50,384 nucleotides of DNA, from IMG/VR virus record IMGVR_UViG_2880412407_000006; one strand, written 5' to 3'. Shown here piece by piece: positions 15,001-18,000 of the stretch. How positions within the stretch are numbered: position 1 is the stretch's first letter; each line of letters starts with the position of its first letter. This stretch comes from a virus (Duplodnaviria > Heunggongvirae > Uroviricota > Caudoviricetes). The position numbers were made by a program.

Positions 15001-18000
15001 ATGTTTCTTTTGTGCTGATTGGATGAATTTGGGTCACTTATGATGAGAGATGTTGCAGGAAAAGAAGTTGGCATTGATCTATTGGATAGTTAGAATTGCT
15101 GCGGGTGCTTGAGGCTATCTGCCTCAGGCATGAACACCAAAAGGCAGATAGAGAAAAGCCCCAGTTAACATTACGCGTCCGGCAAGACGCTTAACATTAA
15201 TCTGAGGCCAATTTCATGCTTTGCACATGTAGGTTAGCTGATCCTACCCACGTAATATGGACACAGGCCTAAGCGAGGTTCTGGTTTTCAAATTGTTCCG
15301 GACTGAGGCCGCCACACCAACTGTGCCGCCGCCACCGATTGTAATCACATTCGATATAATTAAACACCGTTGCCCGCATTATTTCCCGGCTGATAAAGTG
15401 TTCTCCATGGATACATTCCACTTTCAGCGAATGAAAGAAGCTTTCCACGCAGGCATTATCGTAGCAGCAACCTTTTGCGCTCATACTTCCACGCAGATTA
15501 TGCCGCTTCAGTTGCGCCTGATAATCTGCTGAACAGTACTGGCCTCCACGGTCCGTGTGAACGATAACGTTCCGGGGCCTCTTACGCCGCCACAGCGCCA
15601 TCTGCAGGGCATCGCAGGCCAGTTGCGCCGTCATGCGTGGCGACATTGACCAGCCAATAACGGCACGTGACCACAGGTCAATGACCACTGCCAGATACAG
15701 CCAGCCTTCATCTGTACGTAAGTACGTGATGTCTCCTGCCCACTTCTGGTTCGGGCCACTGGCGTAAAAATCCTGCTCCAACAGATTTTCTGACACAGGC
15801 AGGCCGTGTGCGCGGTAGCTGACCGGGCTGAACTTCCGGGAGGCCTTTGCCCTCAGTCCCTGACGGCGCAGGCTTGCCGCCACGGTTTTTACGTTAAAGG
15901 GGTAACCCTGAGCACGCAGTTCATCCGTCAGGCGTGGGGCACCGTAACGCTGTTTTGACCGGGTAAAAGCCGCGAGGACAACGCTGTCGCAGTGTTGGCG
16001 GAACTGCTGACGCGTGCTTATCCTTGTCCGCCGCTGACACCACGTATACCAGCCGCTGCGGGCCACCCGGAGCACGCGGCACATTGCTTTGATGCTGAAC
16101 TCAGCCTGATGTTTTTCAATAAAGACATACTTCATTTCAGGCGCTTCGCGAAGTATGTCGCGGCCTTTTGGAGGATAGCCAGCTCTTCATCCCGTTCTGC
16201 CAGCTGGCGTTTGAGACGTGCAATCTCGGTAGACATCTCCAGTTCACGTTCAGAAGACGTCTGCTGATTTTGCTGTTTACTGCGCCAGTTGTAGAGCTGT
16301 GATTCATACAGGCTGAGTTCACGGGCTGCGGCAGTAACACCGATGCGTTCAGCAAGCTTCAGGGCTTCACTGCGAAATTCAGGCGAATGCTGTTTACGGG
16401 GTTTTTTACTGGTTGATACTGTTTTTGTCATGTGAGTCACCTCTGACTGAGAGTTTACTCACTTAGCCGCGTGTCCACTATTGCTGGGTAAGATCAAGCC
16501 TCTTACGTGCCGAAAGGCAAGGAGAAGCAGGCTATGAAGCAGCAAAAGGCGATGTTAATCGCCCTGATCGTCATCTGTTTAACCGTCATAGTGACGGCAC
16601 TGGTAACGAGGAAAGACCTCTGCGAGGTACGAATCCGAACCGGCCAGACGGAGGTCGCTGTCTTCGTAGCCTACGAACCTGAGGAGTAAGAGACCCGGCG
16701 GGGGCGAAATCCCCCGCCACCTCTGATGTGTCAGGCATCCTCAACGCACCCGCACTTAACCTACTTCGGCGGTTTTTTTTCACGTACTGTGGTTGTGAAT
16801 ACGATTGGTATTAGGATATGCTAACAACATTAGCTTGACTAATTTTGTATTGACTTGATTTTTGTTAAAGAACAGGACGGAGAAGTAAGGGGGGCACCCA
16901 ATGAGCTACGCACTAAAAAAACACCCGCGATTGACTATTCCCCCTCGCGATAAAAGCGTTGTGGCAGCTCCGCGCCCGGCTATCGATGAAAATTGCACTC
17001 ATCGTGAGCAGGTGAAAAATGCTTTCGATTTCGGTTTTTCTCGTTACGAGAAGGCAATGGAAGAACTTTCAAAAGTGTAATGATGGGTATTGTGCTCTAT
17101 GGCTGAGATTGTTGAAGGAGTGCATTACCTTACGGTTGATGATCTTGTTGAAATCAATCGTTCCCTAATTGAATTACAGACGCCAGATGAGCTCGTTGGT
17201 GTTCTGAGTCCAGATAACTTAAGTTCTTCTCAGGCCCGTCCCAGCATGGTTCGATGGTATGAACAGACTAATGACATGTTTGTACTGGCATCGGTATTGA
17301 TTGAAAGTCTGATTCAGAATCATCCGTTTGCTAATGCGAACAAACGAACAGCTATGATGGCTGGTTACGTCTTCTTGTTGTTGAATGGCTATGAATTAAC
17401 AGCACCAGGCGATGAAATCGTGGAAATGGCAGAGGGACTGGCCTGCAAAACCTATACTCGAGAAGATCTCGAGAACTGGTTGTGTTATTGGTCTCGCGCG
17501 TATGACAGCCGGGAATTATGTAAAACAGGCGCAACTATTGTTTTGTATGAAACTATCAAGTTTAAAATGGAACAGCAAAACTAAAGGTGCTTCCAATGAA
17601 AACCCGCTTCGGCGGGTTTTTTGTTGTTTATTTTCGGTGAGTATGATGCATCTGGTTGTACTGATGTGGTTGGCTGATTCTGTTATTCAGGTGGCTTATT
17701 GCTGTTGATCGGTATGTCTTCACGGCTAGAATCGAGGCTCTTAAGTAGCGCGCAGGGAGAAGAGGGATGGACCCCGAAGGGGAAGAGCTATTTATCTGGA
17801 AGGATTCTGAAGATGAAAATCGAAGAATTGCGTGAAATTTTTAGTGAAAATGGCCTCTATGCTGTGCGCGTTGAGAATGGGAAAGTTGTCTACACAACGT
17901 TAATCCCTGATGATCATGTAATTTTATCTATCGAGGCATTCATTGAATACCTTGAAAGGCTCGGTTTCAAGGTAGTTCGCGAATGAGTTATAATTCGTAA

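Follow-up and report, generated by a model that had tools for sequence, protein, structure and literature searches.

The locus analysed lies in a window of 50,384 nucleotides, the whole stretch of DNA under study, and its host element is a Rac-type prophage. Direct reading of the sequence placed a 1258-bp IS3 element on the minus strand at 15239-16496, with the IRR end at 15239 and the IRL end at 16496. The element is 99.84% identical to IS3A of MG1655 (K-12), with 2 mismatches in 1255, and its terminal inverted repeats, which are imperfect when aligned (TGATCCTACCCAC... and TGATCTTACCCAG...), begin with TGATC as is typical of the IS3 group of the IS3 family. Translation revealed both genes of the element to be intact on the minus strand, insE (orfA, 99 aa, 16431-16132) and insF (orfB, 288 aa, 16135-15269), and the Pfam domains HTH_Tnp_1, rve and rve_2 were detected in these ORFs. 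A putative -1 frameshift site, the motif A AAA G, is present in the orfA/orfB overlap at IS position 328. The same junction in the O121:H19 strain 16-9255 is annotated by RefSeq as 'IS3 family transposase, programmed frameshift' adjoining hokD. The element is flanked by AGC on both sides, at 15236-15238 and 16497-16499. The orthologous locus of O111 RM9322, which is 99.8% identical over 608 nt spanning the insertion site, is unbroken at this point (...GTAGGTTAGCCTCTTACG...) and carries one AGC only; the repeat is therefore a true target-site duplication. The sequence, the IS3A identity, Pfam and RefSeq thus bear out the sequence-only reading of an intact 1258-bp IS3 with complete insE/insF and an AGC duplication.

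An intact hokD-type toxin ORF of 51 aa was found on the plus strand at 16534-16689. The ORF scored 81.2 bits with PF01848 (HOK_GEF), for which the cut-off is 22, is identical to K-12 HokD in 50 of 51 amino acids as taken from the DNA alignment, and is named HokD by RefSeq. The IS3 end and the hok ATG are 37 nt apart (16497-16533) when the 3-bp duplication is counted in, so that the earlier placing of the IS3 end at 16496 and of the Hok start at 16534, 37 bp apart, agrees with direct reading. The segment 16500-16533 (plus strand) was identified by alignment and Rfam as a remnant of the 3' part of the leader, corresponding to Rfam model positions of about 122-157 in the IS-free locus. It consists of the second half of dcb (CTC...), mok codons 9-19 and the hok SD AAGGAG, which is kept at 16519-16524, 9 nt before the ATG. 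On the far side of the ORF, also on the plus strand, are fbi (16739-16751), complementary to the 5' tac, and the 3' terminal hairpin and U-run of the hok mRNA (16753-16777), recognised from sequence and fold.

The 5' part of the hok mRNA leader (nt 1-136) was located across the element at 15103-15238 on the plus strand, using Rfam RF01794, R1-type alignment and the fold of the rebuilt mRNA. It is preceded by an intact hok promoter, TTGGCA-17-TAGAAT (15068-15096, plus strand), which was found by the consensus scan, the weight matrix and the R1 alignment. This promoter has 10/12 consensus matches and the top weight-matrix score of the region (12.35), and its position is as expected upstream of the R1-aligned +1. 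The leader contains tac (15103-15114), ucb (about 15158-15162) and, by R1-type alignment, the mok SD GAGG (15204-15207) and the mok ATG (15216-15218), all on the plus strand. The hok/sok leader model RF01794 scored 80.9 bits on the left flank (15103-15273; gathering threshold 59) and 118.5 bits on an uninterrupted locus where the leader is contiguous; the last ~35 model positions are displaced to 16500-16536 in the window. The impression that no obvious upstream leader remains is therefore not upheld, as a complete 136-nt 5' leader with its promoter lies on the other side of the element, within 15068-15238. The accompanying statement that the 5' regulatory region of hok is probably severed holds, since leader and promoter are now beyond IS3. 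The mok frame is cut after codon 8 and continues as a truncated mok' ORF of 18 aa (MLCTCRLADPTHVIWTQA; 15216-15272, plus strand, by translation), which enters IS3 and ends at TAA 15270-15272, about 1.26 kb before hok.

A putative Sok RNA body of about 75 nt is intact at 15150-15223 on the minus strand. Its 5' end was placed by homology to R1 Sok, whose 5' end is given by an in-vitro transcription primer (PMC1635323), which puts the native Sok +1 at about 15222-15224, and the fold predicts a 5' single-stranded tail, a long hairpin and a U-rich 3' end. The Sok promoter hexamers, which were assigned purely by R1-type alignment, are a -10 TAACCT (R1: TATCCT) at 15231-15236, 2 bp from the IS3 right end, and a -35 TTGCCT (R1: TTGCGC) at 16515-16520, both on the minus strand and with 1261 bp now added between them. 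The rebuilt promoter has a 17-bp spacer and a weight-matrix score of 6.37, no better than background. The putative promoter thus appears split by IS3 in the window and whole in the rebuilt site and in IS-free loci; a Sok-promoter mutation in R1 falls in dcb (PMC9841398). The insertion site corresponds to nt 134-136 of the hok mRNA, and judged from the aligned sequence it would fall in mok codon 8/9, dcb and the Sok promoter spacer all at once. Within the spacer, 15 bp separate it from the -35 on the upstream side and 2 bp from the -10 on the downstream side, and the locus gains 1261 bp through it. Two hybrid promoters at the IS3 ends were considered and rejected. When an IS3 right-end -35 is sought for the native -10 TAACCT, spacings of 16-18 bp give ATATTA, CATATT and CCATAT, all unlike TTGACA, and the pair is absent among the top weight-matrix matches. 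For the Sok -35 TTGCCT with an IRL-derived -10 reading into the transposase, the hexamers CTTGAT, TTGATC and TGATCT are without the A2/T6 pattern and the pair is absent among the weight-matrix matches.

In-silico removal of IS3 yielded a canonical hok mRNA of 414 nt, whose fold had a z value of -6.58, with 0/100 shuffles equally stable. In the predicted minimum of this fold, tac (15103-15114) pairs with fbi (16739-16751) and the mok SD GAGG with ucb; both pairings hold for the rebuilt mRNA only, tac and fbi being 1261 nt further apart in the window. The comparison with homologues that lack IS3 at this site was in accordance with this reconstruction, as the site is contiguous in O111 RM9322 and thousands of E. 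coli genomes matched the rebuilt empty site with no break at the junction. The full hok/sok module was present in 4031/5426 genomes, and the same survey counted roughly 11,000 hokD-type places. The IS-free allele is carried, for example, by strains 90-3040 and ERL03-1416. The IS3-hokD junction was 100% identical in 7 complete genomes, four of them labelled O121, which indicates that the allele is viable and inherited. The O121 genomes carry 6 copies of the leader/Sok region, five paralogous hokD-type loci being found beside the interrupted one. Related hokD modules have also been struck independently by IS3 and IS1203. The O111 RM9322 orthologue, which has the same prophage neighbourhood and a 148-nt leader that is 100% identical, has an IS3-family element of its own, IS1203/IS629, which interrupts the hok ORF near codon 12 and is flanked by a GAT duplication. 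In a paralogous locus of STEC719, IS3 lies near position +17 of the hok mRNA and is flanked by a GTC duplication. Going by their sequences, the O111, STEC719 and window insertions are independent events at different positions. The literature search returned no paper on the IS3-hokD junction or on IS3 in O121:H19.

The module was compared with known hok systems. The aligned order of promoter, tac, ucb, mok SD and ATG, dcb with the Sok promoter, hok SD, hok and fbi is the same as in hok/sok (parB) of R1, and the 5'-3' fold-back of R1 is likewise predicted in the rebuilt window mRNA. R1 is a plasmid, whereas the window module belongs to a prophage and is interrupted by IS3. The distance from the mok ATG to the hok ATG is 58 nt in R1, out of frame by one nucleotide (PMC9841398), and 57 nt in the window module, where the upstream ATG, which has an SD before it, shares the reading frame of hok. 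The in-frame arrangement was seen in 4/4 hokD-type loci with the motif and in the R1-like plasmid locus examined. The hok SD, 3' UTR, fbi and terminator are common to the window locus and K-12 hokD (relF), which follows relBE in Qin. Homology with K-12 begins ~17-20 nt before hokD; in K-12 all sequence beyond about -17 to -20 was lost by the rearrangement that placed relBE. In contrast, the window locus has the leader and Sok gene, displaced by 1261 bp, and no relBE. The ORF list for 13500-16534 contained no relBE-like ORF, as had been noted for the interval between IS3 and hok, and relBE or any other operon upstream of hok was rejected on the same list. The expectation that relBE should stand upstream does not apply here, since that junction is a K-12-specific breakpoint of Qin and thousands of genomes have the full hok/sok module instead. 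The view that IS disruption of hok loci is a known theme is supported by the account in PMC12214031, which cites Pedersen & Gerdes (1999, Mol Microbiol 32:1090). As related there, K-12 hokA, hokC and hokE carry IS150/IS186 in or next to the regulatory region with the Hok ORF intact and are presumed inactive, as here. Unlike these loci, the present case involves IS3, a hokD-type locus and a Rac-type prophage, and the mapped insertion lies in the Sok spacer, dcb and mok codon 8/9, where one event is predicted to knock out toxin translation as well as antitoxin transcription.

The structure of the locus, its empty site, its homology and its distribution were established directly, and from them we infer the transcriptional and translational consequences. 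The insertion probably produced a null hok/sok allele in which the toxin is most likely silent. IS3 transposed into an otherwise complete module at nt 134-136 of the hok mRNA, and hok is cut off from its own promoter and from the mok start by the added 1261 bp. Translation of mok would end after 18 codons inside IS3, the 5' tac and the 3' fbi are pushed 1.26 kb further apart, and the predicted Sok promoter is split by the same insertion. The null allele would then have become fixed in a lineage including O121:H19. Silence of the toxin is expected because R1 Hok needs mok translation up to the hok SD and because the hok start is predicted to be paired. In R1 (mok ATG 116-118, hok ATG 174-176), Hok loses its toxicity when mok has a stop codon ahead of the hok start or a mutated start codon (PMC9841398); this coupling was demonstrated for R1 and not for hokD-type loci, whose mok ATG is in frame with hok. 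The folding model gave an unpaired probability of 0.00 for the hok AUG in predicted RNAs starting anywhere in 16300-16497, and the hok start site is predicted to be base-paired whatever sequence precedes it. With the toxin disabled by the same insertion, loss of the Sok promoter would be tolerated. The points that speak against this reading are the background-level score of the Sok hexamers, the intact and strong-looking hok promoter, possible read-through across IS3, in which no intrinsic terminator was detected, the kept hok SD AAGGAG, the in-frame mok ATG of hokD-type loci and possible silence of the module before the insertion.

The hokD-type module could also have been inert before the insertion, which would make the position of IS3 functionally meaningless; this is a tentative alternative and is considered rather unlikely. 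It concerns the consequence and not the anatomy, and is compatible with the structural description. The chromosomal hok loci covered by the account in bioRxiv 10.1101/2025.08.07.668861 gave no post-segregational killing, so the module may have been silent already; the same account cites Pedersen & Gerdes (1999) for hokA, hokB and hokC showing neither post-segregational killing nor rifampicin activation. The insertions of IS3 and IS1203 elsewhere in the same or paralogous modules also suit prior inertness. However, the rebuilt allele has all its recognisable elements intact, its fold is far stabler than shuffles, full-length modules are retained in most of the genomes searched, and overexpressed HokD is toxic (bioRxiv 10.1101/2025.08.07.668861).

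The outward promoters of IS3 were examined with respect to both flanks. P3L and P3R both fire from IRL to IRR (bioRxiv 10.1101/2021.11.02.466885); hok adjoins IRL, the left end, and both promoters therefore face away from hok and, at this locus, aim into the Sok body. The weight matrix found two right-end outward motifs, described or putative, on the minus strand within 15364-15292: TTTAAT-15-TACAAT at 15364-15338 and TTGGTG... at 15320-15292, both directed towards the Sok body and away from hok; right-end promoter motifs were named by Fuqua & Wagner (PMC12095673). Transcripts from P3R would start at about 15285-15330. Together with the intact Sok -10, body and terminator-like hairpin and the six leader/Sok copies of the O121 genomes, these features would fit an allele with a dead toxin and a Sok body transcribed from P3R and/or insEF read-through, an antitoxin-only module that could buffer the five paralogues. 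Such an outcome is judged improbable. Fuqua & Wagner picked their IS3-family end fragments, both ends of IS3 included, for the absence of detectable promoter activity and placed a pause or termination site within the last 50 bp of the IS3 right end (PMC12095673). The 5' extension of ~50-130 nt expected on such an RNA would likely mask the single-stranded 5' tail by which Sok recognises its target, and K-12 chromosomal Sok RNAs gave R1 hok no cross-protection (PMC9841398). A bolder proposal, given little chance, is that the insEF transcript and P3R through the Sok body would supply a Sok-like RNA acting in trans on the five hokD-type paralogues, and that the dcb/Sok-promoter sequence (GTAGG-TTAGCC-TCTTAC), which is like abutted IS3 ends, may be a preferred IS3 target. 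If true, this target preference would help to explain recurrent IS capture by hok loci at points where toxin and antitoxin are struck together.

On the plus strand of the IS3 left end, the consensus scan found no promoter facing hok and the weight matrix found nothing above background. The weak -35/-10-like pairs at 16393-16454 scored ~6.1, where the background is 6.35 hits per kb per strand at score >=6. An IS3 left-end promoter driving hok was rejected on these background-level scores and on the opposite direction of both described IS3 promoters, and the outward IS3 promoter suggested by the sequence-only reading is accordingly disfavoured. The simple scan detected no intrinsic terminator inside IS3 on the plus strand, which is weak evidence as the scan also missed hok's own 3' hairpin. 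Beyond the mok' stop, ~1.26 kb of RNA would go untranslated and should be exposed to Rho-dependent polarity, which counts against read-through into hok. Continued expression of hok, whether by read-through from its own promoter or by weak outward promoter activity of the IS3 left end, is very unlikely: the intact near-consensus promoter, the scan without a terminator, the AAGGAG 9 nt from the ATG and the weak left-end pairs speak for it, but the left-end fragment was chosen for absent detectable promoter activity (PMC12095673), the hok AUG is predicted to be fully paired in every tested transcript, mok coupling is lost, and Hok made without regulation, the Sok promoter being split, should kill, yet seven sequenced genomes carry the allele.

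The locus, read as a probable null allele, adds an unremarkable instance to the chromosomal hok loci inactivated by insertion sequences and involves no new mechanism. It provides a cleanly mapped example for the long-standing view that IS elements frequently inactivate hok/sok loci on the chromosome. The position would be tolerated since one insertion both breaks the predicted Sok promoter and parts hok from its promoter and from the mok leader frame. Automatic annotation names the ORF 'type I toxin-antitoxin system toxin HokD', and nothing in this label betrays the broken module; counts of 'functional' hok loci in Shiga-toxin-producing E. coli are therefore inflated. The junction may also serve to mark a lineage including O121:H19.

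The insertion was identified as a complete IS3 of 1258 bp (15239-16496, minus strand), bounded by imperfect terminal inverted repeats and flanked by AGC at 15236-15238 and 16497-16499. It showed 2 mismatches to IS3A of MG1655 in 1255 aligned positions; orfA (99 aa; Pfam HTH_Tnp_1) and orfB (288 aa; rve/rve_2) are both open, with an A AAA G motif in their overlap region. The 51-aa hok ORF (16534-16689, plus strand; Pfam HOK_GEF, 81.2 bits) begins after a spacing of 37 nt, and its product is identical to K-12 HokD at 50 of 51 residues by DNA alignment. The sequence, reading frames and Pfam matches are in accordance with the sequence-only reading, which had described an intact IS3 with AGC duplication 37 bp upstream of hokD. 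Residue 45 is Val in the window and Thr in K-12. Codon 47 is TAC within TACG (16672-16675) and may be the site of the tyrosine-to-cysteine A-to-I editing reported in HokC, HokD and HokE at position 46 of a published numbering (PMC12214031).

In the Rfam scan, the hok/sok leader model RF01794 matched the plus strand at 15103-15273 with 80.9 bits (gathering threshold 59). This match is the left flank of IS3 and its alignment decays on entering the element; the end of the model (...AGCCuCUUaccugccgaAAGGCAAgG...AUG) corresponds to the right flank, 16497-16536. Just upstream of the first model position lies a promoter close to consensus, TTGGCA-17-TAGAAT (15068-15096). The empty site, rebuilt in silico by taking out IS3 and one AGC, was matched across the junction as a single unbroken piece by thousands of complete E. 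coli genomes; for the 426-nt module alone, 4031 of 5426 genomes gave a coverage of at least 80%, the best identity being 97.9%. The IS-free locus of strain ERL03-1416 (L001) scored 118.5 bits with RF01794. The orthologous locus of O111 RM9322 (L008) shares its upstream genes with the window, its 148-nt leader is 100% identical, and it is uninterrupted at the insertion point, with 99.8% identity over 608 nt. As this orthologue reads through with a single AGC, the leader is split rather than lost. The earlier view that no leader remains, reached by looking only within the 37 bp between IS3 and hok, is therefore not retained; the comparison with IS-free loci that it proposed confirmed the insertion but not the missing leader.

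The landmarks of the module were assigned by alignment with the R1-type plasmid locus (L003), anchored on the published R1 positions of the mok SD GAGG (about 105), mok ATG (116-118) and hok ATG (174-176) (PMC9841398). They are tac (15103-15114), ucb (about 15158-15162), mok SD GAGG (15204-15207), mok ATG (15216), hok SD AAGGAG (16519-16524), fbi (16739-16751) and a terminal hairpin with U-run ending near 16777, while the ...AGC and CTC... parts of dcb lie on both sides of IS3. By homology to R1, the Sok -10 is TAACCT (R1: TATCCT; complement of 15231-15236) and the -35 is TTGCCT (R1: TTGCGC; complement of 16515-16520), with a 17 bp spacer in the rebuilt site. In R1, a Sok-promoter mutation is located in dcb (PMC9841398) and the Sok 5' end is known through an in-vitro transcription primer (PMC1635323). 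The putative Sok RNA, running on the minus strand from about 15223 to 15150, has a predicted single-stranded 5' tail, long hairpin and U-rich end. In the predicted fold of the rebuilt 414-nt mRNA the 5' tac pairs with the 3' fbi and the mok SD with ucb, which is the published closed conformation of hok mRNA. Its minimum free energy was -170.6 kcal/mol compared with -127.6 ± 6.5 for dinucleotide shuffles (z = -6.58; 0 of 100 equally stable). A 'mok' ATG with SD was observed 57 nt upstream of and in frame with the hok ATG in four of five hokD-type loci checked (the window, L001, L006 and L008; the motif was not found by search in the fifth, the STEC719 locus L007), and likewise in L003. This start gives an N-terminally extended Hok of 70-71 aa, and the R1-like +1 frame is shut by TAG in those loci; mok of R1 lies 58 nt upstream, with a one-nucleotide offset (PMC9841398).

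IS3 lies at nt 134-136 of the hok mRNA, after mok codon 8 and within dcb, which bears out the earlier claim that hok is cut off from its 5' regulatory region. Transcripts from the hok promoter would comprise 136 nt of leader and continue into IS3 in antisense orientation to the transposase genes, and mok' stops at TAA 15270-15272 after 18 codons, leaving about 1.26 kb between this stop and hok. In R1, toxicity is abolished when the mok start codon is mutated or when a stop codon lies ahead of the hok start, and it was concluded that hok translation needs mok translation at least to the hok SD (PMC9841398). RNAs with 5' ends from 16300 to 16497 and the 3' end at the hok terminator were folded; the hok SD is predicted to be mostly paired with 16502-16508, and in all of them the predicted pairing partner of the hok AUG is 16665-16667 (unpaired probability of the AUG 0.00), therefore loss of the upstream leader would leave the hok start closed. 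The spacer of the Sok promoter is interrupted as well: the insertion point is 15 bp downstream of its -35 and 2 bp upstream of its -10, and the two hexamers are 1261 bp apart in the window. Sequence reading and weight-matrix scan gave no plausible substitute hexamer at 16-18 bp spacing from either IS3 end. The IS3-bearing locus is thus most likely a null allele with the toxin untranslated and the Sok promoter broken, the latter presumably tolerated because toxin and antitoxin halves were lost in one event.

The module may also have been inert before IS3 insertion, which sequence alone cannot tell from the null allele. The Sok body may be transcribed from IS3, through P3R or insEF read-through, rendering an antitoxin-only, IS-driven locus; the orientation of IS3 permits this, but reporter data on the right end and the 5' extension on any such RNA weaken it. 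Fuqua and Wagner picked IS3-family end fragments, both IS3 ends included, for lack of detectable promoter activity, and a pause or termination site lies in the last 50 bp of the right end (PMC12095673); the right-end motifs of that study were recovered by the weight-matrix scan at 15364-15292, minus strand. Expression of hok through read-through may occur, no terminator having been detected within IS3, but it is made less likely by polarity, lost mok coupling, the predicted closure of the start site and the fact that the lineage is viable. The outward IS3 promoter earlier suggested to drive hok is unlikely, since hok adjoins IRL, both described promoters, P3L and the outward-facing P3R, run from IRL to IRR (bioRxiv 10.1101/2021.11.02.466885) and hence away from hok, and on the plus strand of the left end no pair scored above background (about 6.1; hits of at least 6 arise 6.35 times per kb per strand).

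The module is carried by a Rac-type lambdoid prophage at ttcA with the gene order intR, xisR, rcbA, ralR, recT, recE, kilR ... ydaT/U/V ... hokD, followed by a Doc-family toxin and then DUF1367, DUF1364 and DUF1133 genes. Seven complete genomes carry the exact IS3-hokD junction at 100% identity; four of them are labelled O121 or O121:H19, and the record names of the other three give no serotype; the O121 genomes listed have six leader/Sok-region copies each. RefSeq annotates both genes but no split module, and the literature search found no published account of this junction. An IS629/IS1203-like element (1201-2512, TSD ATC; 96.3% identity to the IS1203 copy of O111 RM9322) interrupts the Rac integrase gene intR and probably fixes the prophage in place; it is missing from the otherwise 99.86-100% identical O121:H19 strain 16-9255, therefore the strain of the window has one extra IS. 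Two overlapping convergent genes immediately upstream of the hok promoter (13080-14715; RefSeq 'sce7726 family', plus, and 'beta family', minus) are candidate anti-phage defence genes beside the toxin-antitoxin modules because of matches to the PADLOC models cll (2.4e-28) and PD-Lambda-2_C (1.8e-41). Directly downstream of hokD, a 59-aa ORF and a Doc ('death-on-curing') family toxin (RefSeq; 16901-17584) form a second toxin-antitoxin-like pair, for which PADLOC gave no match. Rfam matches above gathering thresholds were c4-a1b1 (19506-19558), isrK (19519-19595) and C4 antisense RNA (19621-19704); this stretch, in the prophage late-regulation region, resembles an antisense immunity cassette of the P1/P7 type.

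Related modules carry independent insertions. In a paralogous module of STEC719, IS3 lies at about +17 of the hok mRNA (L007 1360-2617, TSD GTC); in 19SZHZ663Rt, hokD has an IS3 located 571 bp upstream (TSD AAG); and in the orthologous locus of O111 RM9322, the hok ORF itself is interrupted by IS1203/IS629 (L008 3217-4528, TSD GAT). The target GTAGG-TTAGCC-TCTTAC (15226-15238/16500-16506) resembles both IS3 tips, compared as IRR GTAGGATCA, taken as reverse complement, and IRL TGATCTTAC. Two of the three independent IS3 insertions observed in this analysis have GTAGG at -10 to -6 relative to the IRR end (also L006 1340-1359), a possible target preference for which the evidence is anecdotal and post hoc. 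Either relBE or a mok/sok leader had been expected upstream of hokD; in K-12, homology to the module reaches no further than about 17-20 nt upstream of hokD, beside relE, therefore relBE is a K-12 peculiarity and not the expected neighbour. The window keeps its leader, split by IS3, whereas K-12 has relE beside hokD. In the published account, insertion elements are responsible for the inactivation of K-12 hokA, hokC and hokE, and a rearrangement for that of hokD (PMC12214031, citing Pedersen & Gerdes 1999). The IS hits in the window and related modules extend this published picture, and the present locus is a well-mapped new case of the already known IS-disrupted chromosomal hok/sok loci.
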